DNA of 64,000 nucleotides from a bacterium (GCA_021780615.1 JAJXYJ010000022.1:809-64808), one strand, 5' to 3'; counted from the first letter of the stretch, positions 7,684-56,950 are shown. A program made the numbers and translations. The notes: generated by a model not told the origin, from the letters alone.

Positions 7684-7686
7684 ATT

Positions 7687-9922: not shown

Positions 9923-9928
9923 AACTAA

Positions 9929-18344: not shown

Positions 18345-18887
18345 ATGATGCACTCCGAAGACCAATTATCGCCACCCGCACATACAGCAAGCCGCACACT
18401 CCTCATCTCTATTGCCATATGTGTAGGCATTATCGCCCTCAGTGTTGGCGCTCTATTTATATGGGGAAATTATCTCTCCCCCGAAGCTCAGAGCACCCAC
18501 ACCATGCAAAAGAATTATGAGACGTACCAAGTATGGGAACAGCAACACAATCAAGATCTCACCCTGGATACCTATGGAGGCACCACTCCCGAGGAAACTC
18601 TGCAACTATTCGTGGACGCACTTGATGATGAAGATATTGAACTCGCGAGTAAGTATTTTGTACTCGATCAAAGAGAACAATGGGCTGAAGGACTTAAAAA
18701 TATACAGCGAGAAGAAAAAATAGATGAAATAATAAATACTATAAAAAACGCACAAGCGTCAGAAAGAGATACTGGATCAGAAAACCAAAAGGAATTTGTT
18801 GTAAAAAATAAAAATGGTGAAGTAGATTACGCCATTATATTAACACTTAACAACCAATCAAACATATGGAAAATAGAAAGTATGTAG
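18345..18887 (+). CDS. Hypothetical membrane-anchored protein
   Basis: 180 aa with an N-terminal TM ([22 protein letters not shown]). Its stop overlaps the start of the downstream large secreted protein. Confidence 0.4.
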
Positions 18888-39132: not shown

Positions 39133-40461
39133 CTACAAGCCGACGAATTCATCCTGGGGAACTTTTGAGGCATCAGTTGGAAGAGTGACATAAAAGGTGG
39201 TACCTCGATTAAGCTCGGATTCCACACGCACTTCACCACCATGTCGTCTAATAATATTACGCACAATATATAATCCCAACCCCGTCCCATCAGCAACGGT
39301 CTTCACTGCATTATCTGCTCTGAAAAATTTTGTAAAAAGTTTATCAACTTGATGAGGAGGAATACCAATACCAGTATCCTTAATGGTGATTTCAACAAAT
39401 GGATCGGGGTCAAGGGCGCGAACCGCAATAGTAACGCTCCCGTGCTCAACATTGTATTTAATGGCATTATCCAAAAGATTGTAGAACACCATACTCATCT
39501 TTTGCGCATCAATATACACCGGCGGAAGCGGCGTGATGGGGCGATCAAAATAAAGAGTAATCGCATATTGTTTTGCCAATGTTTGAACCTGTATCAAAAG
39601 TTCATCAAGAAATGGCAGCAGGTCAGTCTGTTGTATATTATACCCAAATCTTCCCTCTTCTATTTTTGAAGCATCCAAAAGATTATTCACTGTCCCCAAC
39701 GCATTTTTTACTGCCGCAAATGCCGTGTCGACGAGATTCTTTTGATCAACTGTCAGTGATTCACTTTCAAGAGCTTCAAGTCCCCAGTTAATAGCCGTCA
39801 ATGGCGTACGCAACTGGTGCGCCGCCACTGCAATAAACTCAGTTTTCGATTTCAGCAGTTCCTGTTCACGCGTGGTATCGGTAATAATTTTGATAAATCC
39901 GACGATTGTATTTTTTTCATCATAGATACGATCAGTAATCACTCGTAAATCTTTTTTAACATCATCAAAAGAAATATCCACCACCTGAGGATATACCCCC
40001 GGTTCAGAACGAGTAATCACCACAGGCGCCAAGGAAGAAAAGACAACTTGCACTAACATTCGCAAGTGTTCATCAGATGCTTGTGATGCATCCAACGTCA
40101 TTCCTAAAACTTGCTGTGCGGGAACCTCAAAAATAGCCTCTGCCGCCGCGTTAAAAAGAATCACATGAAAATTAGCATCATATGCAACAATACCCGCGGG
40201 AACATGGTGGAGCACCCCTTCTTGCTGACGCACAGTCAATTGCAAACGAGCCTCATCGTGCATGAGACGAAACACAAATACGGTAATTAACGCAAAAAAT
40301 ACAGCAACTCCCAGAGCGGCAACATAGGAAATCGGAGCAGGGAGAAAGAAAAGACTTCCTCCAAAAAGGACTACGCCTAAAAGAATACACGCGGAAAAAA
40401 GCACTGGATATTGCCAAAGTGCCTGCGGAGAGGAGTTTGTCGATGGCGCCGATGATGCCAT
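39133..40461 (-). CDS. Sensor histidine kinase (two TM helices, PAS-like domain, HisKA, HATPase)
   Basis: H-box AAHQLRTPLTAI. N-box LLDNAIKYN. G-boxes DTGIGIP and GTGLGLYIV. Confidence 0.75.
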   Translation of the reverse strand: MASSAPSTNSSPQALWQYPVLFSACILLGVVLFGGSLFFLPAPISYVAALGVAVFFALITVFVFRLMHDEARLQLTVRQQEGVLHHVPAGIVAYDANFHVILFNAAAEAIFEVPAQQVLGMTLDASQASDEHLRMLVQVVFSSLAPVVITRSEPGVYPQVVDISFDDVKKDLRVITDRIYDEKNTIVGFIKIITDTTREQELLKSKTEFIAVAAHQLRTPLTAINWGLEALESESLTVDQKNLVDTAFAAVKNALGTVNNLLDASKIEEGRFGYNIQQTDLLPFLDELLIQVQTLAKQYAITLYFDRPITPLPPVYIDAQKMSMVFYNLLDNAIKYNVEHGSVTIAVRALDPDPFVEITIKDTGIGIPPHQVDKLFTKFFRADNAVKTVADGTGLGLYIVRNIIRRHGGEVRVESELNRGTTFYVTLPTDASKVPQDEFVGL

Positions 40462-40510: not shown

Positions 40511-41755
40511 CTATAACGAAAATGCGTATAAGTGTTGCGTTCGATGATCAATGAAAAACAGTGTCCCTGCTGTTGCCGCCACGTGCGACACATCCAAAGA
40601 AAGTGCGGTGCCATCAAGAATGGGAACGGATGCATTGTCAGTAGTATCTATTTGATACAACTCATCACTGCTAAAAATAGCATTTTCCAAATAGCTATCG
40701 GGAAGTGTTGTATTTGATCCTTGGCTAAATGATGCGGGCACTCCACAAAAGAGGTGCAATCCATCAGAAGAAAACGCGCATTTTTGAGCAAGCGTCGAAA
40801 ACGGAATAGACGTCATAATATTTCCCGAAACACTGTTGGCAAAAAATCCAAGCATATGAGTGCTATCTTTTGAAATGAAGTATGCAAAAGTAGATCCATT
40901 GGGTGAAAAACGTATTGCCAGCCCTCTACCGGATACCAATGATTGAATTGTTTTTTGAGTAAGATTAATTGTCCACACTTGAGCATTATATAGAGAGGAC
41001 TGCTTAGGAAGCAGTGCGATGGTTGTCGAAGAAGGCCATGCAAGCAGAACATCGCTCAGATATAATGTTGTTACTAACGTCAAAGGTCTTTTACTTGTAG
41101 AAATATTTTGTATATACAATGATTCAGCGCCGGTTCCCGGATCAGTGAGAAATGCAAGAGAAGAACCATTTGGAGAAAATGCCGCACTCACCGCGCCATC
41201 AAGAGGAATCCACACGTTTTGCGTTACATCAAAAAGAGCAATAACTCCTGAATCAAAGGTTACTAATGCTTTTGTGCCAAGCGCATTACCCACCACCGAA
41301 AGAGGCCTCCCATACTGCGACGATGCAATTTTTTGCTCCTTACCTTGTCCCGTAAGTAGGACCACATCTCCCTGCACCGTTACATAAAAAACAGGGTTTG
41401 GAAATGATGGATCATATGGCAACGAAAGCGAGGTAAGTGCCGTGGATGAGGCAACCCAGTAACCCGCAACGAAAGCTGTTGAAAGTTGCGTGAGGCGACT
41501 CAATTGAGATTGGAGTCCTTCGTCACCCTCAACGCCATTTAATCCACCTCCACCACCTTGTACCCCACTTATTCCACCACCCTGGGACGATACTGATCCG
41601 AATCCATTTTGCCCCGAAGAAGATGCGACAGGGAGAGATCCTCCGGGAACAGGAAGAATAAATGATTTTGACTTTTGTAATCCAAAGTAAACACCAACAA
41701 TAATAGCAATAATAACAACAATAAAAATTATAGTGAGGAGTACTTTGCGAGACAT
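40511..41755 (-). CDS. Membrane-anchored beta-propeller protein (TolB/WD40-like repeats)
   Basis: N-terminal TM. Repeated FSPNGSSLAF / FSPNGSTFAYF blades. Confidence 0.4.
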   Translation of the reverse strand: MSRKVLLTIIFIVVIIAIIVGVYFGLQKSKSFILPVPGGSLPVASSSGQNGFGSVSSQGGGISGVQGGGGGLNGVEGDEGLQSQLSRLTQLSTAFVAGYWVASSTALTSLSLPYDPSFPNPVFYVTVQGDVVLLTGQGKEQKIASSQYGRPLSVVGNALGTKALVTFDSGVIALFDVTQNVWIPLDGAVSAAFSPNGSSLAFLTDPGTGAESLYIQNISTSKRPLTLVTTLYLSDVLLAWPSSTTIALLPKQSSLYNAQVWTINLTQKTIQSLVSGRGLAIRFSPNGSTFAYFISKDSTHMLGFFANSVSGNIMTSIPFSTLAQKCAFSSDGLHLFCGVPASFSQGSNTTLPDSYLENAIFSSDELYQIDTTDNASVPILDGTALSLDVSHVAATAGTLFFIDHRTQHLYAFSL

Positions 41756-41763
41756 AATAAAGA

Positions 41764-42741
41764 TTAAAAGTTTATATGGAGATGACGATTTCCTGAAGCG
41801 CTATCGACAATATGCTGGCCAACGGTACTGCTCGTTGTATAACATGTTGTATGACCACATACAGAATTATCAGTGGTTGTAAACTCGTAATGCGGATCAG
41901 CACCGATGCTCTTAAAATAGTTAAAAATGTTTTGCCAACTCGCTAACGTACCAGCATTGGACGTAATATCAGCAGCCGAACCATTGTAATGATTTGATGT
42001 TGCCGCATGAGATCCTCCTGTTAAACTTGATACGGTAAAATTGTCAACGCCACCAGTCTTTCTTGCTTGTTCAGCAGTAGTTAATTTTTTTAAAAGATTG
42101 TAGGTTAGCGTAACCGTACCACTTGGCCCTCCTGCAGTACACGAACAATCAGGAGAACATACGTAAGGATATCGCCCCATAGAGACATCTTGCATAATAG
42201 CTCGGGGACTCGATTCTGCAACACATGTCGCAGAAGAACTCAATCCATCCCCCCCTTTAATGGCAAGATATTTTAATGCAAGTTGTGATTCTTGTGTATC
42301 AGTATTGGTAGTACTTGAGGGGGGAACTCCCGTTGTTCCCAGTCCCGTCGGCGTCGGTGTAACAATTTGAACCTGTGTTAACCCTGGATTTTTAAGAACC
42401 GTCAACGTCGGATTAATAGTATTTAAAATAAGAAATGCACCTCCCAAAAGCACAATCCCCCACACCGCACTCTTAATAATTTCTGTCGCATCCTTTTGAG
42501 CAGAGCTATTACCGCCAGTCACCACATACTTAACGCCCCCATACACAATCATAACCACCGCAAGCGTTCCAGCGATACCAAGCGCATACATATAAATATT
42601 ATTAACCAAACTTGCCGGATCAGTTGAGTTGGCAAACGAAGGAAGTCCTAAATCATAGGCATGTGCAACGAGAGGAGAAAAGAACGTTGTTATAAAAGAA
42701 AGGGTGTGGGAAAATAAATACATAGTTAAGTAATAATACAA
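41764..42741 (-). CDS. Membrane protein with a VirB2/TrbC-like two-helix N-terminal region and a C-terminal peptidase M15 (VanY/LAS-type) zinc peptidase domain. It is a probable cell-wall hydrolase of the T4SS-like cluster.
   Basis: Signal/TM region ...AHAYD; two hydrophobic helices separated by a short loop (ALGIAGTLAVVMIVYGG...AVWGIVLLGGAFLIL). C-terminal SNHYNGSAAD fits the M15 S-x-H-x-x-G-x-A-x-D motif, and the terminal HLH supplies the third zinc ligand. Confidence 0.45.
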   Translation of the reverse strand: MYYYLTMYLFSHTLSFITTFFSPLVAHAYDLGLPSFANSTDPASLVNNIYMYALGIAGTLAVVMIVYGGVKYVVTGGNSSAQKDATEIIKSAVWGIVLLGGAFLILNTINPTLTVLKNPGLTQVQIVTPTPTGLGTTGVPPSSTTNTDTQESQLALKYLAIKGGDGLSSSATCVAESSPRAIMQDVSMGRYPYVCSPDCSCTAGGPSGTVTLTYNLLKKLTTAEQARKTGGVDNFTVSSLTGGSHAATSNHYNGSAADITSNAGTLASWQNIFNYFKSIGADPHYEFTTTDNSVCGHTTCYTTSSTVGQHIVDSASGNRHLHINF

Positions 42742-42744
42742 TAA

Positions 42745-43455
42745 TTACTGCGTAAGGGAAAAAGAATAAGAAGCATTTCCTTGTTCAAAAGGATCTTGAT
42801 TGCTCGAGAGAGCCACTCCCACATTCACTGGTCCTGCGGCCCCCGAGGGAATGGATAGTGGTAACGCCAATGATGACACTTCCGTTGCGGGCACTTGATT
42901 GCCATTCACCGTCCATGTGGCAACAAGAAACTGATCAGCGGTATTAAAAAAGAAAGGAATCGCAGTAATGGTCGAGGTGGTGTTTGTTGGTAAAGATGAT
43001 GTAGGCAAAGAAAGAAAAACTAATGGGTTGGTAACGGGAATAGAAAACCAACACTCGGGAAAATAGGCGCTGTTGTCAGTCGGATCATAATATGAAAAAG
43101 CGACACTGCCGGTAATGTTGCTTCCCGAAAGATCATTATTGGCAATCGTAAGCTCCTGCATGCCTGTGCCCTTACGCACTAAGTCGCCATTGAGATACCA
43201 GCGCACCTCTTTATTTGAGAGATCTAATATTTTCCCCTTATCAGCCGGATTTTGACTCACTGCCTCAAGCGTAACCCGTACGGACGACTGACGAATGGGA
43301 ATAATTTTTCCCATAAACCATGTCGGTGCATGATTTTGAGATTTCCACGTAATAATACACTGCGGATCAGCGGCATGGGCAAAAGAAAAGCTACCCAATA
43401 CCCCTATCACACCTATTCCCATACACAATAATAATTTTTTATACATGGTACCCAT
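42745..43455 (-). CDS. Secreted hypothetical protein
   Basis: Signal peptide MYKKLLLCMGIGVIGVLGSFSFAHA. Length is 236 aa. Operon member. Confidence 0.35.
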   Translation of the reverse strand: MGTMYKKLLLCMGIGVIGVLGSFSFAHAADPQCIITWKSQNHAPTWFMGKIIPIRQSSVRVTLEAVSQNPADKGKILDLSNKEVRWYLNGDLVRKGTGMQELTIANNDLSGSNITGSVAFSYYDPTDNSAYFPECWFSIPVTNPLVFLSLPTSSLPTNTTSTITAIPFFFNTADQFLVATWTVNGNQVPATEVSSLALPLSIPSGAAGPVNVGVALSSNQDPFEQGNASYSFSLTQ

Positions 43456-43511
43456 CTCGTATTCTTATAAAGGGTAGTATATCAAAAAAGCAGTAAGAGA
43501 TAAAACACCCT

Positions 43512-43979
43512 TTAGGGTTTTTTATTCCCCATTTTTTCCAAAACCTCCCCTGCCACTCCAAACCATTGCTGAAACTTTTCAGGATGATTAACGGCAATAA
43601 CCGTCATAATCGCCGCGACCGTACTGATAGGAAGCACATCAAGTCCAGGAATTAACTCAACCGCCTGTGCAATTGCATTCTTTGAAATAACCTGATGTAC
43701 GCCTTTGAGCCATAGCCAAAGAACGGTCGCTGGACCAAATAAAAAGCGAGTAAACCAAAAGGGATCGGTTAAATCGCCAATGACTGCCATGGAAACATAA
43801 AGAAATATTTCAATGTGATCAAAATGTGGCCCAAGTGAATCGTTAACATCCGCCTCCCCATCAGTCAAAGTATCGTCCACATCTTCGTCGTCATCCGACG
43901 CAGCGGAAACATCCTCATGGTACCGAGGGACATATTCCTGACTATCTTGATTTTGCTGTTCTTGGATATCGTCAGGCAT
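43512..43979 (-). CDS. Small membrane protein with an acidic N-terminus
   Basis: 155 aa with a D/E-rich N-terminus and 3-4 TM helices. Operon member. Confidence 0.35.
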   Translation of the reverse strand: MPDDIQEQQNQDSQEYVPRYHEDVSAASDDDEDVDDTLTDGEADVNDSLGPHFDHIEIFLYVSMAVIGDLTDPFWFTRFLFGPATVLWLWLKGVHQVISKNAIAQAVELIPGLDVLPISTVAAIMTVIAVNHPEKFQQWFGVAGEVLEKMGNKKP

Positions 43980-44076
43980 AAAATTGAAAAATGAAGTATG
44001 GAATATGTATCAAGTATTAAGGAAAAATATTTTTTTCTTCCATACTACATATTCCATACCCCTTATCCCACATTAG

Positions 44077-45834
44077 TTACACCAACCCCTCCTCTTCTCC
44101 TAAAAGTTGCTGCGGCTTGGTGGTAATAATTTTATCCTCAAAATACGAAGCGACCACTTGCATGGCTACGTGCTTCAGACCGGCAAAAAAGAGTCCTTGC
44201 CCCACCCCTGCCTCGAGCAACAAATTCTTTTCCGCTTCAGTTAAATTAAATGTTTTTGCCACCGTATCGATAGTTGCGGGAGATTGTTTTAAAAGCAACT
44301 GCAACGATGAGTTGGTAATAATAGGCTTGCCGTAGGGGGAATTCATAAAATCATCAACTTCTTGCGTAATCGTTGAAAGTCCTAAGTAGTACTTGCGTCC
44401 GCGCTTTGCAAGACCATACAGAAACGCCGCACCCTCAGGATATTTCATCATCACCCAGGCTTCATCAATAACCAAAATGCGCCGCTTTAACTGTGACCGC
44501 ACCAGGTTCCAGATAAAATTCAAAATGACATACATCGCGATCGGACGCAGTTCATCCTCAAGATCGCGAATAGAAAATACGATAAGACGATTATTCACGT
44601 CAATGTTCGTTTTTTGATTCACAAATCCGGCATAACTTCCCTGAGTAAATTTATACAATCGCTCAGCCAAGGAACGCCCTCCTTCCATATTTCGCAACAC
44701 CGTCTCAAAATCAGACAAAAGAGGTGGTTCCATCTTTAAGAAATTAGGATTGTCCGGCGTAATATCATAGGACGCATATGTTTCGGTCAGCGCGCGATCA
44801 AGCAGCGACTCTTCTTCCACACTAATCTCTCCTAACATAATTTTAAGCAATCCGGTAAGAGTTAAAATGTGTGACTTAAAAACGTCGGCAGGATCTTCAC
44901 CCTTGGGAACCATAGGAATATCAAACGGGTTAATGTGCTGATCAGAGGTAAGGGATATTTTAAAATAGGTGCCACCCACCGTATCACTAAGATTTTTATA
45001 TTCATTTTCAGGATCGATAACCAATACGTCAGTACCGATCATAAGTGAGCGCAGTATTTCCAGCTTTGTCGCATACGATTTTCCACCACCTGATTTTGCA
45101 AAAACAACCTGATTCGCATTTTCCAATGAAAATCGATCAAAAATAACCAAAGAATTATTATGCAAATTAATGCCATAGAGAATGCCGCTCTCGCTGGTTA
45201 AATCCATTGATACAAAAGGGAAAAAAGAAGAAACCGGACCCGAATTGAGTGGTGTGTGTATACCGAGTTTATCCTGACCCAAGGGAAGCGTGGAAATAAA
45301 TCCATCGACTTGCTGAAAGAGTGCCGGTTTTACATAAATAAGCTTGCTCTCAAAGAGGTTAATAATCATTTCTTCAAGCTCATTGATCTTTTCAATGGAG
45401 TCTCCGTACACCGTAATGTACACCCCCACATCAAAGAGGCGCTCCTGAGCCTGTTGCAGATTGTCCCGCAGAGATTCAATGTCATTAAATGCTGTCTCTA
45501 ACATAGGATCGCGCACAAACCCTTTGTCTTGTCGATCAATAACCTCAGCTTCTACCTGTGCCGCCTTTTTACGCAGATTTCGCAACGCCAGCGCGGTATC
45601 AACGGGATGAATAAAAATGGATATGTCAAAAAGTTTTGACAAATTAATAATAGGAGAAAACCAGCTACTGGAAAGATAGCGTGGATATGAAAAGATAAAA
45701 AATGTTTTTGAATATTTATCTCCTATTTTGACGTAGTTTTGACCAACCTCAAGAGCGGCGGGAGCAATGATATTTTTAACCCCTCCTCCTTGCTCATCGA
45801 TTTGATTATTGGATGTGTGTGTAGTGTCTGACAT
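44077..45834 (-). CDS. Type IV secretion VirB4/TraC-family ATPase, C-terminal ATPase portion
   Basis: Walker A FAKSGGGKSY. Walker B ILVIDEAW. CagE/TrbE/VirB domain organisation. Length is 585 aa. Confidence 0.8.
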   Translation of the reverse strand: MSDTTHTSNNQIDEQGGGVKNIIAPAALEVGQNYVKIGDKYSKTFFIFSYPRYLSSSWFSPIINLSKLFDISIFIHPVDTALALRNLRKKAAQVEAEVIDRQDKGFVRDPMLETAFNDIESLRDNLQQAQERLFDVGVYITVYGDSIEKINELEEMIINLFESKLIYVKPALFQQVDGFISTLPLGQDKLGIHTPLNSGPVSSFFPFVSMDLTSESGILYGINLHNNSLVIFDRFSLENANQVVFAKSGGGKSYATKLEILRSLMIGTDVLVIDPENEYKNLSDTVGGTYFKISLTSDQHINPFDIPMVPKGEDPADVFKSHILTLTGLLKIMLGEISVEEESLLDRALTETYASYDITPDNPNFLKMEPPLLSDFETVLRNMEGGRSLAERLYKFTQGSYAGFVNQKTNIDVNNRLIVFSIRDLEDELRPIAMYVILNFIWNLVRSQLKRRILVIDEAWVMMKYPEGAAFLYGLAKRGRKYYLGLSTITQEVDDFMNSPYGKPIITNSSLQLLLKQSPATIDTVAKTFNLTEAEKNLLLEAGVGQGLFFAGLKHVAMQVVASYFEDKIITTKPQQLLGEEEGLV

Positions 45835-45855
45835 ACGTGTTATATACCTATCATG

Positions 45856-46545
45856 TTATGACTGTGTGCTCGGCGAAGTGCCGACTGCCGAAACAGATTC
45901 TTGTGAGGGAAGCTTTTTTTCTATCGCCTCGGGATTATACAAATTATAATACAGCTCAAGAAGCTCCTCATCGTTTAACGAAACCGCTCGCAAGCCAATC
46001 CGTTCAAGACCATTCAACACTTCATCAACGCGCTGTTGTAACTGAGCATATTTTTCTTCGTCCGATTCTTCTTGCTGATGTTTATTTTTTTTACCCGCCA
46101 AAAACGGCAGAAAACGGGCGGCACCTTTTTGTAACTCTCGAATGCCCCCACCATCATAAGGAATGACGGCAAAAAACGTTTTGGTCATAATTTCATTCTG
46201 TTTCACAAACCCACGAATAAATTCAATATATTCCGCTGTTTGATTTTTAAGAAGTTCGTTTGTTTCAGCATCACGAACCCCTTCCATTTTATGAAGGTAT
46301 CCACTGATATTTAATTTACGGGAATGAATAACGATTTGAATGGAAAAATCGAGTGCATTTAAAAAATTCTGATAGGCGCTGGTAATACCATCTTGTTCTT
46401 CTTCTGATTTGAGCTCAAAATTAACACCAGCCACCATCACTACCGCCCGCAACCCACCCGTTTTCAAACGAATAACGCCATTTTTTATCTCTTCCACATC
46501 AATGAATTGCTGCGTTGCATTTTGAGGAAATGTTGCTTGTGGCAT
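45856..46545 (-). CDS. VirB4 N-terminal domain-like protein. It is in the same frame as the downstream ATPase ORF, separated by one TAA and 7 codons.
   Basis: VIRLKTGGLRAVVMVAGVNFELKSEEEQDGITSAYQNFLNALDFSIQIVIHSR resembles the conserved VirB4/TraE N-terminal block. 229+7+585 aa is about the canonical VirB4 length. Confidence 0.5.
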   Translation of the reverse strand: MPQATFPQNATQQFIDVEEIKNGVIRLKTGGLRAVVMVAGVNFELKSEEEQDGITSAYQNFLNALDFSIQIVIHSRKLNISGYLHKMEGVRDAETNELLKNQTAEYIEFIRGFVKQNEIMTKTFFAVIPYDGGGIRELQKGAARFLPFLAGKKNKHQQEESDEEKYAQLQQRVDEVLNGLERIGLRAVSLNDEELLELYYNLYNPEAIEKKLPSQESVSAVGTSPSTQS

Positions 46546-46647
46546 AAAAATAAGTACGTACTCAAAAAATAATTATCTTAAAAATCGATACGGCTATCTA
46601 TACACGTAGTATACCATAAAATACAACGAAACTCAGCGAAAGCCGGC

Positions 46648-47172
46648 TCACCGATAATCAATACGCCGCGCAACTTCACGCTCGCCCGTGATACGTCGCA
46701 ATACCTGATATTGCTCTTGGATTTCTTTGATCGATTTTCGAGGAGGTGTTTTTTCTCGTTTAGGTATGGGATTTTTTGTGGTTGTTAAATCTTGAAATAA
46801 TTTTCCAACTTTGGAAAAATCGGGAACGATATCTTTTAAATTTTGTCGAGTATGTTCAACCGAAGGAATGGCTATTGCTTCATGAAGCACAAGAGGACGA
46901 CGCCACAAAAATAATTTTGGTTCCCAAAAAAACTTGAGGCCATACAGGGCAACCATATAGAGCGGCCTCCCGCCAATTTTAATAAACGCAAACGTTGCAC
47001 CAACTGAAAGTAATACGATTGCCACCAAAATCCACACAACAATGTTGAGTACAAAAAACAAAAAGAAGCAAATGAGCGCTGGTAATGCAATGAACGCAAA
47101 CTGCTTCAACGTCAGCGGGCCGACGATTTTACTCTCAAAATCAATAAATTGTGGAACGGTAAACTGAGCCAT
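46648..47172 (-). CDS. PrgI/VirB3-like small membrane protein
   Basis: MAQFTVPQFIDFESKIVGPLTLKQFAFIALPALICFF matches the PrgI-family N-terminal signature (xVPQFIDxExKIxGPLTxKQF). Two TM helices. It lies immediately upstream of virB4. Confidence 0.5.
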   Translation of the reverse strand: MAQFTVPQFIDFESKIVGPLTLKQFAFIALPALICFFLFFVLNIVVWILVAIVLLSVGATFAFIKIGGRPLYMVALYGLKFFWEPKLFLWRRPLVLHEAIAIPSVEHTRQNLKDIVPDFSKVGKLFQDLTTTKNPIPKREKTPPRKSIKEIQEQYQVLRRITGEREVARRIDYR

Positions 47173-47232
47173 AGGTAATGATAGTAAGTATCAAGGATTA
47201 AAAGCTATATATCAATAGCCTCAGACAACCCA

Positions 47233-48240
47233 CTATGAAAGCGGCGTCTTAAATCCCGTATAATTTACCACCTTCGCTTTTTCTTGAATTTGAGGATTAG
47301 GTGCCCCATATTTTTTCACCGTAACAGGAATCTGCTGCGAGGGGGCCACTGGTGATGAAGGGGATTGCGGAGAGGCAGGGGGTTCTTGGCGGAGTATCGA
47401 CGATGACGCATCCCGCTCAGGAAACGGTTGTAAAGGAATTTCAACGCGTGCTCGCGATGCTGGCGCCTGCCGTTGTTGAGAAAAGGCTGTTTTAAAGGAT
47501 CCCATAAAACTGCCATACGACATTGGACGATATGTTTGCTGTGGTGTTTGGCGAACAATGGGCTTTGCCTCACCTTCCGTATGAAGAATAAAAGGCATTT
47601 CTCCTTGAGGTGTTGGAGAAGGAGTGGGTATAGGCTCGGAGGCAACGGGAGGCAAAGGAACAGTGTTTATTGAAATACTTTCTGTGGGCATGGGCGCGGG
47701 AGGGGGCAAAGGAACATCTTGGCGCAACACTAACGGTGCCGCTTCCATGGTGGATATAGTTTCTGGAGAAACAACGGTATCATTCGATGCGGGTATCGGC
47801 TGTTGCTCTTCTTCTTTTTTAAGATTAAGAGATTCGTCAATATGAACAAGCGGATCAGTAATAACCAATTTTTCTTCCAACTGTACATCATCAAATTCAG
47901 GATGAGGAACCTCTTGCATGGCACGACGAAATGATTCTATATCAGCCCGTACTGGCGCAAAAACATCACGATCAACTTGCTGATAAATATCTAACGCTGT
48001 TTTTGCATCAACGCCAATATCGCTCTGGAGAGAATCAAAAAATTCTTTACTTTGAACAAAACCAAGGAGCACAAACATACAAAGCCGCTGTAACGTTCGA
48101 TGCTGTTGCTTGGTCAACACATTATTTTCTCGAAAAGAGTACAGCACATCATCTGTTACAGGAGAAAAAAGCGCCTCTCGAATTGTATCGGGTGCCCTTT
48201 CCCATCGTTCATTTATGTCATGTTGAGGATATGTGTGCAT
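47233..48240 (-). CDS. Pro-rich hypothetical protein
   Basis: 335 aa with PLPPPAPMP and PTPSPTP tracts. Operon member. Confidence 0.3.
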   Translation of the reverse strand: MHTYPQHDINERWERAPDTIREALFSPVTDDVLYSFRENNVLTKQQHRTLQRLCMFVLLGFVQSKEFFDSLQSDIGVDAKTALDIYQQVDRDVFAPVRADIESFRRAMQEVPHPEFDDVQLEEKLVITDPLVHIDESLNLKKEEEQQPIPASNDTVVSPETISTMEAAPLVLRQDVPLPPPAPMPTESISINTVPLPPVASEPIPTPSPTPQGEMPFILHTEGEAKPIVRQTPQQTYRPMSYGSFMGSFKTAFSQQRQAPASRARVEIPLQPFPERDASSSILRQEPPASPQSPSSPVAPSQQIPVTVKKYGAPNPQIQEKAKVVNYTGFKTPLS

Positions 48241-48284
48241 GTGTTATGTATAAAATGAGCCACTCTATTTTAAGGAGTTGAAGA

Positions 48285-50828
48285 TTATTTTCCGCCACCA
48301 GAAGGGGTGGGGGAGGGGGTGGGGGTAGTGGGTCCTTTTTCTTCCTCAGCATAAGAACCTCCGATGACTGATGCAATGCTTTTTTCCATCTTCTTGCCAA
48401 GTGCTTTTATGGATTGCACCCGAGATTTTTGAAGTGTCTCCGCGATAGCGTCCATATCCTTGCCGGCAATATTAACTATAAGCTCAGTCGTGTATTCCTT
48501 TTCTATTTCCGTCTGAGCATCTCGAGCAAGACTCACAAAGAAGTTTTCAAGTTCTTCTTGCGTCTTTAACTTTGATGCCGTTGAATGCATTGCCTTTCCA
48601 GGATCTCTGCGAATTGCCTGAATATATGCATTGCGCACCTCTTCAGATTGTTTCTCGCTCATCCCGCTAATATCTTTATATTTTCCTGTTTCTTTATCAA
48701 GAGAAAAAGCCGATCCAGCCATATTATCGGCAATATCTTTCCAATCTTTTTCAGAAAATCCATTAAAAAATTTCTCTGATTCACTAGCAACTGTCGCGTT
48801 AGGAACCTCTTTTCCATCTTTATCTAAAGCACTTTGTCCTAAAAGAAGGCGTGCCATATTCAGATTCATGCCCCGCTTTTTTTCAATAGATCCCATTTCT
48901 TTAACTCGCCCCATCTTCTTCATATACTCGAGCGTGCTTACCATGTTTTGCGGAGAAATATCTATTCCTCCTATTTTATTCTTATCCGCAAGCATTTCAT
49001 ATGCGGCAACTTGCTGGCTCTTATTAAGAGTTGGTATTAATTTTTTAATCTGATCAGGACTCAAGTCTTTATTCTGTTTTTTAAAATCATCAATGTAAAC
49101 CTGAGACCCTTTTTCAGTCGTTGTCTGTGTGCGAGACATACCACGAGCCAATCCTCCAAAAGCCATTTTCCCCACAGGTCCCTTCGATCCCCATGAGGTT
49201 ATAGTGCTTTGAACACGTTGTCCTGACTTACTCTTAAGCGCCCCTGAGGTGACGCGATCCCTCCCCCATTTTGCACCTGTCTGTGCTTTTGTTTTTGCCC
49301 ACTTTCCCGTTTTATCAGCAAAATTGAGCGCCATCTTTGATCCACCATATCCCATTTTTTGAGCCATCTTAAGTCCACCAATAAGCATGGCAACTGCGAT
49401 AAGTGATGTCATGAGACTTCCAAAGGAAAGACCTGTGTTGAAAAATTGCGTCGCCCCGCTCATCGTAGTAGCAACTTGTTTTGAGTATTGTGAAAATTGA
49501 TTCATTACTGCAATAGATATATATAAGAAGAGCAGTAGTGTTGGGGCGTAGAGTGACCAATGAATAAACGTATCCCACCACTGTTTCCAATATTTATTAG
49601 TACTGGGAAACACCCACATCAACCATACCAGTGGAGCAACAATAAGAAGGAATGAAAGATAAAAATATCGCATAAAAAGCATCCCCGCCATACCAATGAG
49701 CGTCAGAAATATAATAAGACCAAAAACAATAAGTATCACCATCGCAAGCAAGTCTCCTAAGGTGGCTCCAAAAAGATTATGAATAAAATTGGCGGTTGGA
49801 CTATATCCACTTATCATACCCGAAAAACCAAAAGAGTCTCCAAGTTTTGCAACAGCAGTAGAACTCATACCGGGAGTGCCTAAGGGACTTGGACCCGCAA
49901 TAAAACCAAGCAACCACGCTGATATGGAATTAGTTATTTTAATAAAAATACCTCCAATCAAAAGACTAAAGTTAACCAAAAGCGCGGCAATAATAAGTTT
50001 CCATAACAAACTCTGCATCTGATAACTTTTATTGCGTAAAATAGTGGCAATCGCAATAACAATAATTCCCAACACAAATCCAAGATTGGCAATATCACGA
50101 AAAATAGTCCATCCCGTAATAATAAATGGTGGTTGAAAATTTAATATAGAATCATTAAATGAAAGAGCCGCTTGTATAAGGTATCCCGCAAGCGTAATAA
50201 ACGCACTTACAATAATAAGAATTAAATATAGTATTGTCTGAATAACAATTCCCACAAGAGGAATAGGGGTATCCGCAACATTACTCTTAGTATTATTTGA
50301 CGCAGACGCAGTACTATTCAATTTTTGATTCTCCGTACCAATTGCAGCATTAATCGCATTAATACGATCTTGAACCGCTTTTATTTGTGCGGGCGTTGCA
50401 TTATCTGGTAATTGCTGTTGGTCACTTTCCGCCTTTGTAAGTAAGCTTTGTAACCCTGCTTGATCACAATTACTCAAGTGTTGTTCATCACATGGGTTTG
50501 TGATGTTAACATTTTTTTGAGCATTTTCAATAAGCTTGAGTTGATTTATAAAATCAGCCTTTGCTGCTAATTGTTGAGGGGTTCCAGGCGGATTATTTAC
50601 TATAGCAGATTCATTAATTAAAGCCTGTTCAGTAATACTATTATGTAACTGACTTAACTGGTCCGCAGTACACTGATCTAGATGCTGAACATCACAAGAA
50701 GGAGTCGTCTGCGCGGATGCAAACTTTAGCGTACCAAATGTCATAAAAATAATGACGCCAAAAACCGCTACCCACATAAGAATGCGAGCACGGCGAGATG
50801 TATGCATGGTATTAGTAAATAAAGTCAT
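48285..50828 (-). CDS. VirB6-like polytopic membrane protein with an N-terminal secreted Cys-containing domain and a large C-terminal hydrophilic domain
   Basis: 847 aa. Signal/TM, then 8 or more TM helices in the middle, then a Lys-rich C-terminal ~350 aa. The architecture resembles Gram-positive VirB6 homologues (PrgH/TcpH/ConG). Confidence 0.45.
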   Translation of the reverse strand: MTLFTNTMHTSRRARILMWVAVFGVIIFMTFGTLKFASAQTTPSCDVQHLDQCTADQLSQLHNSITEQALINESAIVNNPPGTPQQLAAKADFINQLKLIENAQKNVNITNPCDEQHLSNCDQAGLQSLLTKAESDQQQLPDNATPAQIKAVQDRINAINAAIGTENQKLNSTASASNNTKSNVADTPIPLVGIVIQTILYLILIIVSAFITLAGYLIQAALSFNDSILNFQPPFIITGWTIFRDIANLGFVLGIIVIAIATILRNKSYQMQSLLWKLIIAALLVNFSLLIGGIFIKITNSISAWLLGFIAGPSPLGTPGMSSTAVAKLGDSFGFSGMISGYSPTANFIHNLFGATLGDLLAMVILIVFGLIIFLTLIGMAGMLFMRYFYLSFLLIVAPLVWLMWVFPSTNKYWKQWWDTFIHWSLYAPTLLLFLYISIAVMNQFSQYSKQVATTMSGATQFFNTGLSFGSLMTSLIAVAMLIGGLKMAQKMGYGGSKMALNFADKTGKWAKTKAQTGAKWGRDRVTSGALKSKSGQRVQSTITSWGSKGPVGKMAFGGLARGMSRTQTTTEKGSQVYIDDFKKQNKDLSPDQIKKLIPTLNKSQQVAAYEMLADKNKIGGIDISPQNMVSTLEYMKKMGRVKEMGSIEKKRGMNLNMARLLLGQSALDKDGKEVPNATVASESEKFFNGFSEKDWKDIADNMAGSAFSLDKETGKYKDISGMSEKQSEEVRNAYIQAIRRDPGKAMHSTASKLKTQEELENFFVSLARDAQTEIEKEYTTELIVNIAGKDMDAIAETLQKSRVQSIKALGKKMEKSIASVIGGSYAEEEKGPTTPTPSPTPSGGGK

Positions 50829-50837
50829 TGTAACTTG

Positions 50838-52562
50838 TTATGTCCGTGCCTCACAATAAAATGTATTATCGCCCGGATACATAGGGTATGCGGGAACAGA
50901 AAGTCCGGTTAAAACATTCTGCAACACATTGACTAGCGTTACGGATCCTCCACTGGTCCCTGGCCCATTTCCTGCATTAGCCGCTTGCTGAATCACAGCG
51001 CTTGAAACCAGATCACTATATTGTGTCGTAAAAGTATTAAAATCATTTTCTACCGTACTCAGAAGTTGTGCAGAGGTGGTAGCGCTTTGTAAATCATCGG
51101 GAGTAATCGCCTGCACTACTGCTACATTTTTTTGAGCAATCGGAAGTGCCTGATTAATAGAAGTCAGTAAATCGTTAAAATATCCATTATGTGCAACCGC
51201 TGTTGCTGACGTAGGAAATCCTTGGAGTGGATAAGGAACAAGATCTCCAAGATTTGCATACGCTTGTGTCTTATTTAAATCATCATAGCGCAGATATCCA
51301 TAGTTTGGCGGTCCAATTGCCTGATCGCTCCCCCACGCTTGATTTGTCACAAAGCGATTGAAACAGAATTTTACCGCATTAAGCGCCATGTCATTTCCCT
51401 GTGTCGCCAAATTCTTAAGTGTTGCAAGATAAGAAATGATATTAGTATAGTTTTTTATAACGCCATTAATGGCATTCTGATTTTGTTGTATCTGCTGATC
51501 GCGAGATCCCTGTGTGAGATTTGAGTAATCCAAAGTAACGCCTCCGCCAGAGGATGGACTACTTTGAAGCAACCCCTGGCCGGCATTAAAGACTTTACCA
51601 ATAACCACATTTACCAGGGCCGATATGACACTTTGCACATTGGATGCATAGTCGAAATTACTCAAAACTCCTTTTGTTGCCGCCTGCGCCGCCACTTCTC
51701 CGGGGGTCACTGTTTGGTTCTGCGTACAGTAGGTGCTTTCCATACTTTTCCATTGCGCATCACTGTCTTGTCTGTTACTTGTTCCTCCTGTTTGAGAATT
51801 AACCTGCCATCCCGCATCAAGGAATGCCTGCTCACTATGAAGAGTTGTTCCATCCAAAGGACTCTGCCAAGCAACGCATTGTTTCACATCCAAAAATCCA
51901 TTTGATGCCGCCGCCTCACTTTGTGCCGCTTGTTGATTTTGTGCCGCGGTTGCCATATAGGCATTTTCTAACGTTAATGACATGCCAAAATAATTATTTT
52001 CGGGATAAAACAATTGTTGAAAAGAAAGCCACCCTCCCTTTTGTATGAAATCCTGCGTATTCTTCAAGTTTGCTTGAAAATCCTGATAACGACACTGTAC
52101 AGGAAGCCCTAAATTATTTTGAGCATATTGCGATGCAAATGAAAGTTGTAATTCAGGAGCAAGAGGGGCACACAAATTAACTCCTTGTGTTTTAAGATAG
52201 TTGTTTACCGTATCAAAGGCGATATCTCCTGATTTTGCCAAATACCCTTTCCAATCAGTCACAAAAAGAGGTTTCCCCCCATTTTGAATAGAATTAACAA
52301 TCTGGTTAGTCATATCATCAACGATGCGCTTGACGATTTGATCGCGCAATGTTTTAAGCCCTTCCTCAGCAGCCCATTGAGCAATATCCGCAAGATGACT
52401 TGTTACCAATTGCACAAGCTCTGTTGGATTAAAAACAACCCATTGAGCATTGGTTTGCAAAGGAGAAAACACCATAGTGGCAACAAATATACCCAAGAGT
52501 ACTCCACCAATAATCTGACGAGATGATTCCTTTAAAAAAGTTTTAATAACTTTAGTCAGCAT
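50838..52562 (-). CDS. Membrane-anchored Q/N-rich hypothetical protein
   Basis: 574 aa with an N-terminal TM and a large extracytoplasmic domain. Operon member. Confidence 0.3.
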   Translation of the reverse strand: MLTKVIKTFLKESSRQIIGGVLLGIFVATMVFSPLQTNAQWVVFNPTELVQLVTSHLADIAQWAAEEGLKTLRDQIVKRIVDDMTNQIVNSIQNGGKPLFVTDWKGYLAKSGDIAFDTVNNYLKTQGVNLCAPLAPELQLSFASQYAQNNLGLPVQCRYQDFQANLKNTQDFIQKGGWLSFQQLFYPENNYFGMSLTLENAYMATAAQNQQAAQSEAAASNGFLDVKQCVAWQSPLDGTTLHSEQAFLDAGWQVNSQTGGTSNRQDSDAQWKSMESTYCTQNQTVTPGEVAAQAATKGVLSNFDYASNVQSVISALVNVVIGKVFNAGQGLLQSSPSSGGGVTLDYSNLTQGSRDQQIQQNQNAINGVIKNYTNIISYLATLKNLATQGNDMALNAVKFCFNRFVTNQAWGSDQAIGPPNYGYLRYDDLNKTQAYANLGDLVPYPLQGFPTSATAVAHNGYFNDLLTSINQALPIAQKNVAVVQAITPDDLQSATTSAQLLSTVENDFNTFTTQYSDLVSSAVIQQAANAGNGPGTSGGSVTLVNVLQNVLTGLSVPAYPMYPGDNTFYCEART

Positions 52563-52568
52563 GATAAA

Positions 52569-53381
52569 TTATTTCATAATCGTTTTAGCATCTTGTGAAA
52601 CAACATCCCATTGCGACGACAGCTGTGGCAAATATTGTAGCGCAACATATGCACTTAAAGGATCAGTAGATTCGTTACGGAGCGCATTAAAAACAATCAC
52701 CATATTTTCAAAAAAGAGTACGTTCTCTTTATGGAAAGATAAAAATGCACGGGGAACACTCATGGTCAGTAACCCATCACGTATATTTTGATATTTTTGA
52801 ATCAAAGTATCAAGGGCTGTTGTGTCTCCTCCACTAAAAGAGCTGTTGAGAGCAGAAATAATTTGTACCTGGGAAAACGCAGAAATACTCGAAAGATATC
52901 CTGCGTACGTTTGCTTGTACATTGTTATATCACTTGATGATGCGCCATCAATAATATGAAGGGACGAATCATTAATGGATGTCTGTATGCCGATGGCCGA
53001 TGGTGTTAATTGACCCGAAACATCCGAAAGATTTTGAAATTTCCCCGTCTGAATTTTACTGAGAAGCGAGGGTGTATCAGTTGCTCCTTGTTGCACCAAC
53101 TGTGATACAAACTGGCTTTGTAAATCAGTTGCTACCTGTTGAGTCAAATTACTTGGTTGCGGAGAAGCTGCTAATAACACCGTAGAAGATCCGGTATTGT
53201 ACGTATTAGAAAGAATATAGGGAGATGATGTTGCCACCACAGAGATGTGACCCGGGGATGTGGTGTTATGAGAAGTAGCACCAGAAAAAACCCACCCCTC
53301 TAAAAACCAATAACCGACAAATACAATTGCCGCAATAAAAAAAATGAGAAGGTATTTTTTCTGAATATCATACATAACCAA
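52569..53381 (-). CDS. Membrane-anchored hypothetical protein; first gene of the T4SS-like operon
   Basis: 270 aa with an N-terminal TM (LLIFFIAAIVFVGYWFL) and an S/T-rich domain. Confidence 0.3.
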   Translation of the reverse strand: MVMYDIQKKYLLIFFIAAIVFVGYWFLEGWVFSGATSHNTTSPGHISVVATSSPYILSNTYNTGSSTVLLAASPQPSNLTQQVATDLQSQFVSQLVQQGATDTPSLLSKIQTGKFQNLSDVSGQLTPSAIGIQTSINDSSLHIIDGASSSDITMYKQTYAGYLSSISAFSQVQIISALNSSFSGGDTTALDTLIQKYQNIRDGLLTMSVPRAFLSFHKENVLFFENMVIVFNALRNESTDPLSAYVALQYLPQLSSQWDVVSQDAKTIMK

Positions 53382-53415: not shown

Positions 53416-54198
53416 TCACCAAGAAGAAAACTCTTCAAACAATCGCATAAGCAGTGCCGGAGAAAGAAGGTGCGGACGAGACGAGGGGGCAACACCTACG
53501 CGATCCAAGAGAGCCATCAGCGCCGCACGATCGGGAATAATATGTATAAGATTATTAAAAATTGTTTTCCGCGGTTGTTTAAAAAGCGCGCGAATAAAAA
53601 TATAGTATTGTTGAGCCAACTCCTGCGTACCACGAGACGGAATTCCCTCAAAAACCACCACCGCTGAATCAACTTTTGGAGGCGGATTAAAAGCTCCGCG
53701 CGCTACACGCATATCCAAGTGAGGCTGTGCCCACCACAGCACCGACGAAGCCAAAAGATTAAGCGCCCCCTCAGAAGCCACAATCCGTTCGGCTACTTCT
53801 TTTTGCATCAAAAGAACAGTCCGCTGTGGCCGATAAGAAAGCTCTCCAATAACACGCAATATATGTCCTGTTATGTAGTAAGGAATATTCCCCGCAACAG
53901 CATACTCACTGCCACGTTCTTGATATGCTTTGCTCAGCAAAGGAAGTTCATGCAACGCATCGCCGTGCACAACACGCAATCCATTTAAAGACGTTGTCAC
54001 AAGAGTATGGGCAAGCGCATCATCTTTTTCAATAGCCGTCACCTGATGCCCACGCGCAAGCAACGCGTGCGTCAGCTCCCCGTGCCCGGGACCAATCTCA
54101 ATAACAGGCAATGGAACGACGCCTACCGCATCAGCAATAGCGGCTAACACACGTTTATCCGTAAGAAAATGTTGCCCAAGAGATTTTTTTGCGAACAT
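53416..54198 (-). CDS. rsmA: 16S rRNA (adenine1518/1519-N6)-dimethyltransferase
   Basis: LGQHFLTDKRVLAAI...VIEIGPGHGELT is the KsgA signature. Start trimmed to MFAKK. Confidence 0.8.
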   Translation of the reverse strand: MFAKKSLGQHFLTDKRVLAAIADAVGVVPLPVIEIGPGHGELTHALLARGHQVTAIEKDDALAHTLVTTSLNGLRVVHGDALHELPLLSKAYQERGSEYAVAGNIPYYITGHILRVIGELSYRPQRTVLLMQKEVAERIVASEGALNLLASSVLWWAQPHLDMRVARGAFNPPPKVDSAVVVFEGIPSRGTQELAQQYYIFIRALFKQPRKTIFNNLIHIIPDRAALMALLDRVGVAPSSRPHLLSPALLMRLFEEFSSW

Positions 54199-54279
54199 AA
54201 TGTGGTTACAATTTGAAATTTTTCCTGCCTGCCAGCAGGTAGGAATCAAATCTTAATTTTAAATTAAAAATTCTCACGT

Positions 54280-56368: not shown

Positions 56369-56950
56369 TTATTTATGTTGTTGAGTGTGGACATGTTTAT
56401 ATTGAAGAGTTCCCTTTCCCGACAACTCTATAATTTCCACATATTGAACAATGTCCAAATCACGCAAATGATGCAAAAAAGACGACGGTATTTTTGTGCT
56501 ACCAATCCACACACTTCGCCGAAGAAAGGTAAATTCCAAAGTCTTAAGCGCTTCACGTAGCCACGCCCTATATAATTTTTTACTTTCAGGAATATCAAAG
56601 ACAATAACAATGGGAGTCTTTGTATAACAAATATTATACGAACATTTTGGAAGCATATTTCTCTTTTTTGTAAAAAACTGTTTAATACATGCAATTCCTT
56701 TTTTTGTTATAGACATATCAGAAGAAAGTAAGCCATCTTTTCTGAGACGTGACGACATAACCGCGTATCGACGCTTTAATATACGAAATTCATCACCGTC
56801 ACCATAATCCCTACCACTCTCCTCGAGCGTATGTACATTCGCCCATAATTGACGCGTGGAACCAGCCGAAAAAAGAAACGCCTCAAAAGCACTTGAAAAT
56901 TTTCTACTTTGCACATTTTTTAAAAAATCAACCTTAGAAACCCTTCTCAT
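56369..56950 (-). CDS. Hypothetical protein with an N-terminal wHTH-like region and a C-terminal Cas2-like ferredoxin-fold region (PaaX-like architecture)
   Basis: YAVMSSRLRKDGLLSS is wHTH-like. IVIVFDIPESKKLYRAWLREALKTLEFTFLRRSVWIG...IVQYVEIIEL follows the beta-alpha-beta pattern of Cas2/PaaX C-terminal domains. The assignment rests on pattern similarity only. Confidence 0.3.
   Translation of the reverse strand: MRRVSKVDFLKNVQSRKFSSAFEAFLFSAGSTRQLWANVHTLEESGRDYGDGDEFRILKRRYAVMSSRLRKDGLLSSDMSITKKGIACIKQFFTKKRNMLPKCSYNICYTKTPIVIVFDIPESKKLYRAWLREALKTLEFTFLRRSVWIGSTKIPSSFLHHLRDLDIVQYVEIIELSGKGTLQYKHVHTQQHK

Follow-up and report, generated by a model that had tools for sequence, protein, structure and literature searches.

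A Patescibacterial type IV secretion cluster whose pilin is fused to a predicted Hedgehog/DD-peptidase domain

A 64,000-nucleotide stretch of bacterial DNA (GCA_021780615.1, JAJXYJ010000022.1:809-64808; called the window below, with positions counted from its first nucleotide) carries on its minus strand, between positions 40511 and 53381, eleven open reading frames (ORFs), which I number g1 to g11 in the direction of transcription. I propose that they encode a type IV secretion system (T4SS) of the Patescibacteria clade, in a Wolfebacteria-like member of the Paceibacteria, that this system is nonconjugative and builds a pilus or tube, that its pilin bears a peptidase of the LAS type, and that uptake is its favoured function. 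Taken whole, this proposal has in my judgement slightly better than an even chance of being right. The system is chromosomal and, on this proposal, vertically inherited and related to the MPF-FATA systems of monoderm bacteria.

The T4SS itself is not new. Such systems are already known and are near-universal in the ultra-small bacteria belonging to the candidate phyla radiation (CPR), or Patescibacteria, and the present locus is a further instance. What is not found described in the literature searched is the fusion of the pilin to a LAS domain, nor the conserved, membrane-anchored propeller protein that accompanies it.

A pilin fused to a LAS domain

The preliminary description of this DNA took g10 (41764-42741, 325 amino acids) for a membrane-anchored M15 peptidase and listed no pilin at all. 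Its list was one component short, for the N-terminal part of g10 is a VirB2-type pilin, and it is the fold and metal motif of the remainder, not a match to an M15 family in Pfam, that bear the peptidase label out. The two parts are these:

42406..42741, minus strand: N-terminal part of g10 (residues 1-112), a signal sequence with a VirB2-type T4SS pilin hairpin (PF18895)
41764..42405, minus strand: g10 C-terminal part, Pro/Thr linker (about residues 113-144) followed by a Cys-rich, M15-like LAS domain (residues 145-325), as judged by structural model and motif

The N-terminus matches PF18895 (T4SS_pilin, E 9.6e-10, above the gathering score), TrbC/VirB2 (1.1e-3) and, weakly, chains of Agrobacterium VirB2. 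In the predicted structure of g10 the confidence measure pLDDT (predicted local distance difference test) is about 90 or higher within the LAS domain and below 50 in the linker, which is disordered. A Foldseek comparison of the domain with structures in the PDB gives a Hedgehog N-terminal domain for every one of the 25 best matches (probability 0.72-0.96, E 0.14-0.66), and the zinc motif of LAS proteins, H-x6-D…H-x-H, is intact. As modelled, the C-terminal domain of g10 has the Hedgehog/DD-peptidase (LAS) fold common to M15 peptidases. Coming after the second pilin helix and rich in cysteine, it is placed outside the cytoplasm. No other ORF in the window resembles a pilin, and none resembles a LAS domain.

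With the LAS domain by itself as query, an exhaustive HMMER search of 1.84 billion representative proteins found it in only 121 of them (E ≤ 1e-3). In 105 of these it is fused to a pilin, either once (pilin-LAS, 95 proteins) or in tandem (pilin-LAS-LAS, 10 proteins), and in 16 the LAS domain is the only one recognized, several of these being fragments or having other pilin-like N-termini. The sole family member named after an organism is "pilin [Candidatus Paceibacterota bacterium]". The literature searched contained no pilin-Hedgehog or pilin-peptidase fusion in Patescibacteria.

The H-x6-D motif occurs in all 121 proteins. Three residues, H251, G254, and D258, never vary among 120 representatives, and each of H245, S249, Y252, H320, H322, and four cysteines is conserved in at least 90%. 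Pfam detects T4SS_pilin in 99 of the 120, HH_signal in 9, and Peptidase_M15_4 and Peptidase_M15_3 in 2 each, the matches outside the pilin being weak (about 5e-3 for the M15 families). An SLT lytic transglycosylase domain is also present in four members, g10 not among them, and links the family with cleavage of the cell wall. In the same proteins the pilin cores are 64-78% identical and the LAS domains 28-32%. This contrast fits what is expected of a filament subunit constrained by packing that carries an exposed, fast-evolving module.

The neighborhood of the gene was compared over 80 related loci, each from a different species-level genome and collected by way of VirB4. A pilin lies near VirB4 in 48 of them: pilin-LAS in 12, pilin-LAS-LAS in 4, and in the rest some other pilin, 130-600 amino acids long and often with a different C-terminal extension. 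It appears that the outer module is swapped freely on a conserved pilin core.

Several relatives illustrate the variety of these genes. Variant pilin genes occur in loci L001, L003, L004, L005 (about 13.0-15.5 kb), L020, L027, and L030, having either a tandem double LAS domain (580-617 amino acids) or a longer linker with a single one (562-597 amino acids), and the pilins of other relatives bear unrelated C-terminal extensions, a PKD domain being one that is found among pilin homologues in the protein database. Five proteins (P0188, P0199, P0221, P0241, and P0254) have 440-880 extra residues before the pilin domain, so that the pilin hairpin lies mid-protein with LAS still at the C-terminus. 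Two distant loci of Paceibacteria, L078 (15877-18550) and L079 (3401-5024), have instead arrays of two or three pilin genes, one ORF of which contains two pilin domains, resembling the pilin arrays of Saccharimonadia and Microgenomatia.

How might such a fusion work? In VirB2-type pili (the F, pED208, and T-pilus structures), both termini of the pilin are on the exterior of the filament. If VirB4/TrsD, VirB3, and VirB6 extract the pilin of g10 from the membrane and polymerize it into a pilus or tube, then the LAS domain, tethered by its linker, would decorate the filament, since the C-terminus of the pilin faces outward. There it would cut the peptide stems or cross-links of peptidoglycan and so open a way for the structure through the wall of the epibiont itself, that of its host, or both. 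It would be a built-in substitute for VirB1.

An alternative view is that the LAS domain acts only on the wall of the cell that makes it, again in place of VirB1, and that the pilin is a mere anchor or is cleaved off, so that no peptidase-decorated pilus ever exists. In Gram-negative systems pilins of the VirB2/TrbC type are processed at the C-terminus and VirB1* is released, the linker of g10 is disordered and rich in proline and threonine, the wall hydrolase PrgK of pCF10 is encoded just after VirB4, a comparable position, and 31 of the 48 loci with pilins do without LAS. If any membrane anchor sufficed, however, the presence of 105 of 121 LAS copies on pilins would be unusually strict. It also speaks against this view that the pilin core is far more conserved than the domain and that g10 is the only pilin in the window. 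I regard this alternative as unlikely, and prefer the decorated filament.

The core apparatus

Around the pilin are genes for the machine that would assemble it:

44077..45834, minus strand: g7, VirB4 ATPase, C-terminal two-thirds (P-loop_TraG, AAA_10, conju_CD1110)
45856..46545, minus strand: g6, TrsD-like, separately encoded N-terminal domain of VirB4 (NCBIfam matches)
46648..47172, minus strand: g5, PrgI/VirB3-like, two transmembrane (TM)-like segments and a basic tail (PF12666)
48285..50828, minus strand: g3, extended VirB6-like polytopic membrane protein, 847 amino acids (TrbL/VirB6 matches of orthologues, topology)

The matches support VirB4, which the preliminary description gave as split into an N-terminal domain and an ATPase. 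The ATPase g7 matches P-loop_TraG (E 6.8e-30) and AAA_10 (1.3e-13) in Pfam and conju_CD1110 in NCBIfam (5.3e-111; 372 bits, above the cut-off of 325) over model positions 173-732 of 752, and both its Walker A (AKSGGGKS) and Walker B (ILVIDE, residue 453) motifs are intact. The N-terminal domain, g6, matches VirB4_plasma (6.8e-11) and TrsD (3.2e-7) in NCBIfam, covers positions 1-111 of conju_CD1110, and has a precomputed match to the TraC-like family PF26593. One might suspect that a frameshift had broken a single gene, making VirB4 a pseudogene, but this was rejected, the split being kept in about 76 of the 80 loci. A TrsD-like gene adjoins VirB4 in all 80, and because a fused ORF (800-842 amino acids) is found in only 3-4 of them and homologues of g7 are nearly all 570-590 amino acids long, the split is no accident of the frame.

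The assignment of g5 to PrgI/VirB3 likewise holds (PF12666, E 3.2e-6; 28.0 bits, the gathering score being 27), and a homologue lies directly upstream of TrsD-VirB4 in 75 of the 80 loci. That of g3 to VirB6 is indirectly supported, through orthologues and topology: 10 of 53 syntenic orthologues match TrbL/VirB6 (PF04610, best 9.1e-6), while the protein in the window has no significant match in Pfam and a weak one (0.016) to ICE_Mbov_0396_TM in NCBIfam. The topology is that of an extended VirB6: the N-terminal region is secreted, six or more TM segments lie between residues 189 and 484, and the last 360 or so residues form a basic hydrophilic tail.

A chromosomal locus in a Paceibacteria-like host

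The eleven ORFs previously placed between 40511 and 53381 on the minus strand are indeed there, and the same genes appear in an independent public gene call (contig DAIEGZ010000028.1 of GCA_027355965.1), which differs only in start codons, giving shorter proteins for g1 (268 amino acids) and g10 (319 amino acids). They are closely spaced at most junctions, as had been said, although two of the gaps fall outside the 3-60 nucleotides claimed: from g1 to g11 the gaps are 6, 9, 44, 60, 102, 21, 97, 56, 3, and 8 nucleotides. Their common strand is weak evidence for an operon, because the minus strand carries the genes of nearly the whole window. Nor are the limits of the transcription unit defined, since ksgA lies 34 nucleotides upstream of the cluster and a histidine kinase gene 49 nucleotides downstream, both on the same strand. 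A scan for consensus promoters and terminators singled out no particular operon boundary, and Rfam and tRNA scans gave no match inside the cluster.

Better evidence that the genes belong together is that their synteny recurs across related loci beyond chance. The full order uvrD-ksgA-g1…g11-histidine kinase is kept in about 14-16 of the closest species-level genomes, and in the set of 80 loci a TrsD-like gene directly upstream of VirB4 is kept in 80, PrgI in 75, VirB6-like in 55, pilin in 41, propeller in 41, and ksgA in 49.

53416..54249, minus strand: ksgA, rRNA adenine dimethylase (RrnaAD 2.1e-41)

As a conserved chromosomal neighbor, lying upstream of the cluster in those 49 loci, ksgA argues that the locus is chromosomal, and uvrD, pyrG, and ruvA also flank it. 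The GC content of the cluster (0.41-0.43) is the same as that of its flanks. Among ORFs of at least 150 amino acids in the window there is no relaxase, no type IV coupling protein (T4CP) or other ATPase of the VirD4, TcpA, or FtsK type, no VirB11, VirB9, or VirB10, and no integrase. The absence of VirD4, relaxase, VirB11, VirB9, and VirB10, reported earlier for the cluster, thus extends, for ORFs of this size, to the DNA just outside it and to the full window. The other ORFs of this size encode housekeeping or envelope functions: ksgA, uvrD/pcrA, pyrG, ruvA, a Mur ligase, nusA, clpP, RNase J, and a polysaccharide cluster. The idea of a mobile element, an integrative and conjugative element (ICE) for example, was rejected on the lack of relaxase, T4CP, and integrase in the window, on uniform GC content, and on deep conserved synteny.

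A related idea is that the cluster is what remains of an ICE, decayed or cryptic, its relaxase and coupling protein lost and its function gone. Outside the CPR, after all, its VirB4 is closest to conjugative ATPases of the CD1110 family, and the order VirB6-VirB3-VirB4-…-hydrolase parallels PrgH-I-J-K of pCF10. It is too much to expect of a relic, however, that all eleven ORFs should be intact, that VirB4 should be 55-87% identical over 80 species-level genomes in the same chromosomal neighborhood, that there should be no integrase among the ORFs of the window and no compositional shift, and that a homologous system should be essential in Southlakia epibionticum (PMC10633639). I consider a remnant very improbable and strongly disfavor it.

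What is the host? The best 120 of 8,000 matches to g7 are 70-100% identical to it, and all those among them with an organism's name come from Wolfebacteria, Paceibacterota, or other Patescibacteria/Parcubacteria. Identity is 55-86% with the VirB4 proteins of the 80 loci and 30-35% with the best plasmid VirB4s, which are CD1110-family proteins of Firmicutes and Actinobacteria. Because the nearest relatives of its VirB4 are from Wolfebacteria, Paceibacterota, and other Parcubacteria, at 70-87% identity among the best matches, the host is placed by sequence comparison in the Paceibacteria class of the CPR, as a Wolfebacteria-like metagenome-assembled genome, and not among the Saccharibacteria. 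The earlier placement of the system in CPR/Saccharibacteria was right as to CPR and needs correction as to lineage. That description also left the function open; the system itself has been surveyed (PMC12102498) and found essential in one cultivated Saccharibacterium (PMC10633639).

The accessory proteins

The remaining six genes of the cluster are less easily named, and five of the eleven proteins (g1, g2, g4, g8, and g9) have no family match in Pfam, NCBIfam, or profile searches:

52569..53381, minus strand: g1, 270 amino acids, one N-terminal hydrophobic anchor (TM-like residues 13-31)
50838..52562, minus strand: g2, 574 amino acids, mostly helical and rich in Cys, either secreted or anchored (N-terminal hydrophobic residues 17-35)
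47233..48240, minus strand: g4, 335 amino acids, Pro-rich (43 Pro), no TM-like segment (composition)
43512..43979, minus strand: g8, 155 amino acids, acidic N-terminus and hydrophobic C-terminal half (composition)
42745..43455, minus strand: g9, 236 amino acids, secreted (signal-like segment at residues 8-26)
40511..41755, minus strand: g11, membrane-anchored beta-propeller of PD40/TolB type (PD40, TolB profile)

The best understood is g11, in which an N-terminal TM segment (residues 5-23) and a Gly/Ser-rich linker precede the propeller. PD40 is matched with 22.9 bits (gathering score 20.9) and is found in 10 of 40 orthologues, and a search with the profile of the family gives TolB structures at 3.6e-13 to 4e-12, in keeping with the TolB-like propeller described before. 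A propeller gene follows the pilin gene in 41 of the 80 loci. The N-terminal alpha/beta domain of TolB is absent from g11, and the window has no Tol or Pal genes. The protein is a propeller of the TolB type and no orthologue of TolB.

The position of g2 just upstream of the VirB6-like gene, together with an N-terminal 'VVFNPTELVQ' motif, prompted a comparison with VirB5. It gave no evidence either way: the AlphaFold2 model has a pLDDT of 53.9, Foldseek returns generic helical proteins at a probability of at most 0.12, and there is no credible profile match in the PDB. In Pfam the only match is to DUF4141, below threshold (7.5e-4). The gene is present in 28 loci, only 10 homologues of the protein were found, and its conserved cysteines are C131, C157, C229, C279, C400, and C570. 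For g9 (29 loci), which is possibly an Ig-like beta-sandwich by sequence, the protein and an orthologue match BiPBP_C and PKD below threshold only, and its profile finds nothing in the PDB.

Less can be said of the others. No Pfam or NCBIfam family matches g1, which is syntenic in 14 close loci, and its family profile has no sequence match in the PDB; g4 (17 loci) has no match to a family or to a PDB profile; and g8, present only in the 13 closest loci, has 27 Asp and Glu residues and TM-like segments around residues 107-131, with no family match. Pfam searches with divergent orthologues gave nothing for g1, g4, and g8, and weak PKD/Ig-like matches for relatives of g9 and g2. Nor was any component like VirB8 (PrgL/TraM) recognized by sequence in the cluster. 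When the profiles of g1-g5, g8, g9, and g11 were aligned by hhalign with PrgC-PcfA from pCF10, no pair reached 20% probability, a negative to be read knowing that the positive control, PrgI, also failed (1.9).

I suggest that the secreted Cys-rich g2, the possibly Ig-like g9, and the anchored propeller would be fast-evolving surface accessories at the interface between host and epibiont.

Uptake or export?

The most speculative step is that the tube would serve the uptake of macromolecules from the host, not export. Uptake is favored because the cluster has no coupling protein to present cytoplasmic substrates and because its parts (VirB2, VirB4, and VirB6) are those of the Ced importer. Organisms of this kind are without nucleotide synthesis, which also points toward uptake.

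The same machine might push proteins out. T4SSs that secrete proteins without a T4CP exist (PMC12102498, PMC12857230), and Wang et al. favor protein export or some other alternative role for the Saccharibacterial system (PMC10633639). By analogy with Ptl of Bordetella and VirB of Brucella, proteins brought by Sec to the outer face of the membrane would be delivered to the host, and several proteins of the cluster do have signal-like N-termini. Candidates for such cargo are g2, g9, or a LAS domain cleaved from its pilin. But Pfam and NCBIfam recognize no effector-like gene or toxin domain in the cluster, and its secreted proteins are conserved syntenic components, not variable cargo. The present data fit export and import alike, and I would give export a minor share of belief.

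Several considerations weigh against the proposal that the cluster builds a LAS-bearing pilus for uptake. The favored direction of transport is a suggestion drawn from the list of parts, and import is not known for the T4SS of any Patescibacterium. Both the pilus and the peptidase activity are predictions. With E-values of 0.14 or more, the Foldseek matches of the LAS domain are weak, g10 has no match to an M15 model of Pfam at E up to 0.1, and domains with the Hedgehog fold may be binding modules and not enzymes. A domain of 180 amino acids on each subunit may be difficult to pack for steric reasons; g10 may be a tip pilin or a minor one, or may lose the domain by cleavage. As 31 of 48 pilin loci have no LAS, the system in general can do without the domain. 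The naming of g3 as VirB6 is transitive. Lastly, the window covers only 64 kb. The rest of the genome may hold further pilins, a T4CP, or a relaxase, and it is common in Patescibacteria for a T4CP homologue to lie far from virB4 (PMC12102498).

It is tempting to go further and imagine a pilus in Paceibacteria that cuts cell walls, each VirB2-type subunit, or only those at the tip, carrying a tethered zinc LAS domain, so that the structure bores through the host's peptidoglycan and draws in its RNA or other macromolecules. The LAS family, nearly confined to pilins, would then be a dedicated and rapidly evolving determinant of host range. I offer this extended version tentatively and think it improbable as a whole.

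Neighboring genes

The gene immediately downstream of the propeller gene is, as had been noted, that of a histidine kinase:

39133..40461, minus strand: PAS-HisKA-HATPase sensor kinase (HATPase_c 1.5e-30, HisKA 2.3e-14)

Its synteny with the cluster is limited to the 14 closest loci. There is no response regulator beside it, and the genes that follow are pyrG and an unannotated ORF of 268 amino acids (36524-37330), itself syntenic in 13 loci. The kinase gene is an associated gene and may at most be a candidate member of the system.

Other genes of the window also deserve mention. A long surface-polysaccharide cluster (613-12594, minus strand) encodes glycosyltransferases of the GT1 and GT2 types, methyltransferases (FkbM-type and others), a flippase of the Wzx type (8570-9922), and a 749-amino acid protein like Wzy_C/O-antigen ligase (10345-12594). 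Another gene (13740-15659, minus strand) is for a protein of 639 amino acids with an N-terminal peptidoglycan-binding domain (PG_binding_1) and no other recognized domain. A protein of 1,261 amino acids (18866-22651, plus strand) has two Lamin-tail domains (LTD, E 8.3e-23) and is probably a large surface protein; before it lies an ORF of 180 amino acids with no family. Two beta-CASP metallo-beta-lactamase RNases, RNase J (30816-32612, plus strand) and a second Beta-Casp/RMMBL protein (32813-34162, minus strand), are encoded tail to tail, a pair that may be relevant to the RNA-scavenging lifestyle reported in related organisms. Lastly, a 193-amino acid protein (56369-56950, minus strand) with a Cas2-like PaaX_M central domain (E 3.5e-11) is encoded between a Mg-chelatase/ComM-like gene (57099-58649) and uvrD.

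Significance

The T4SS is a recognized and probably essential hallmark of Patescibacteria. The sole pilin of this cluster carries a fused domain that has the predicted fold and metal site of peptidoglycan DD/LD-peptidases and is hardly ever met with outside such pilins, and this offers a mechanistic handle that can be tested. If the fusion is assembled into filaments, then it would explain how the T4SS of a monoderm epibiont crosses two cell walls without VirB1, and also why the survey of 2025 found pili and few VirB1 homologues (PMC12102498). The fusion is a candidate for the role of a VirB1-like hydrolase in this lineage. Besides this, g2, g9, and g11 are conserved, unannotated surface proteins and candidate components of the interface in the largest class of CPR.

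Comparison with known systems

The T4SS of Patescibacteria was surveyed over 3,035 genomes by Quinonero-Coronel et al. 2025 (PMC12102498). In that work 2,425 VirB4 proteins from 2,407 Patescibacteria assemblies formed a monophyletic clade nested within MPF-FATA; 1,664 TrsD homologues lay near virB4, as did PrgI/VirB3, VirB6, and VirB2-like pilins; relaxases were almost absent and T4CPs rarely near virB4; KsgA was a frequent neighbor in Paceibacteria, Wolfebacteria genomes being in the dataset; and most genomes with VirB2 were without VirB1, a role that other hydrolases may take. The present locus is of the same kind. A TrsD-like gene adjoins its virB4, and PrgI/VirB3, a VirB6-like gene, and a pilin like VirB2 are close at hand; neither relaxase nor T4CP is encoded in the vicinity; the position is chromosomal, beside ksgA; and the ancestry is probably in monoderm MPF-FATA. 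The main text of the survey does not mention a propeller, PD40, TolB, or Peptidase_M15, and the sole fusions in it are of VirB3 with VirB4.

The Saccharibacterial prototype is that of S. epibionticum, in which transposon sequencing showed that a homologous cluster, pilins included, is essential for epibiotic growth, and which has no recognizable coupling protein or relaxase (Wang et al. 2023, PMC10633639). Its cluster (SEML1_0006-0019) has an array of short pilins, six in number, together with distinct genes for a peptidase and for a lysozyme downstream of virB4, whereas here there is a single pilin with LAS fused to it, a conserved anchored propeller, and the 574-amino acid Cys-rich protein. 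In a cultivated relative, tubular structures that penetrate the host and uptake of host RNA are described (bioRxiv 10.64898/2026.06.21.733656).

With the conjugative MPF-FATA systems (PrgH-PrgL of pCF10, the CD1110 family of C. difficile CTn2, and Mbov_0395-0397 of the Mycoplasma ICE), the cluster shares a VirB4 that scores above the conju_CD1110 cut-off, PrgI, and the order VirB6-VirB3-VirB4-hydrolase. With the Mycoplasma ICE there are weak matches to the families of Mbov_0395 (pilin-like), Mbov_0396 (TM), and Mbov_0397 (VirB4). The cluster differs from them in having no T4CP (PcfC/CD1115), relaxase, accessory factors, PrgB adhesin, or recognizable VirB8-like PrgL, and in having a VirB4 that is split, 30-35% identical to those of plasmids, chromosomal, and vertically inherited. 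In pCF10 the relaxase and coupling protein are encoded within 12 kb of VirB4; both are absent from the window.

The archaeal Ced/Ted importers (CedA/CedA1/CedA2/CedB) also bring together a pilin like VirB2, a membrane protein like VirB6, and an ATPase like VirB4, and work without relaxase or T4CP; the pilus of Aeropyrum pernix (PDB 8dfu) is the archaeal comparator. Here the resemblance is in the list of parts: g7 scores only 43.9 bits against the NCBIfam equivalog DNA_import_CedB, whose cut-off is 700, and Ced has no PrgI, TrsD, peptidase-fused pilin, or propeller.

As for the domain on the pilin, it has in common with the LAS (MEROPS M15) peptidases and Hedgehog domains the H-x6-D…H-x-H pattern of ligands and a match to the ShhN fold. 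It differs from them in its lack of a Pfam M15 match, in the extra conserved cysteines C173, C195, C199, and C201, and in occurring nearly always as a C-terminal appendage of T4SS pilins. With VirB1 and PrgK it shares its place, as a putative peptidoglycan-cutting domain encoded in a T4SS cluster downstream of virB4. VirB1, however, is a separate SLT lytic transglycosylase, with or without CHAP, whereas the domain of g10 is predicted to have the LAS fold and is carried by the pilin itself.

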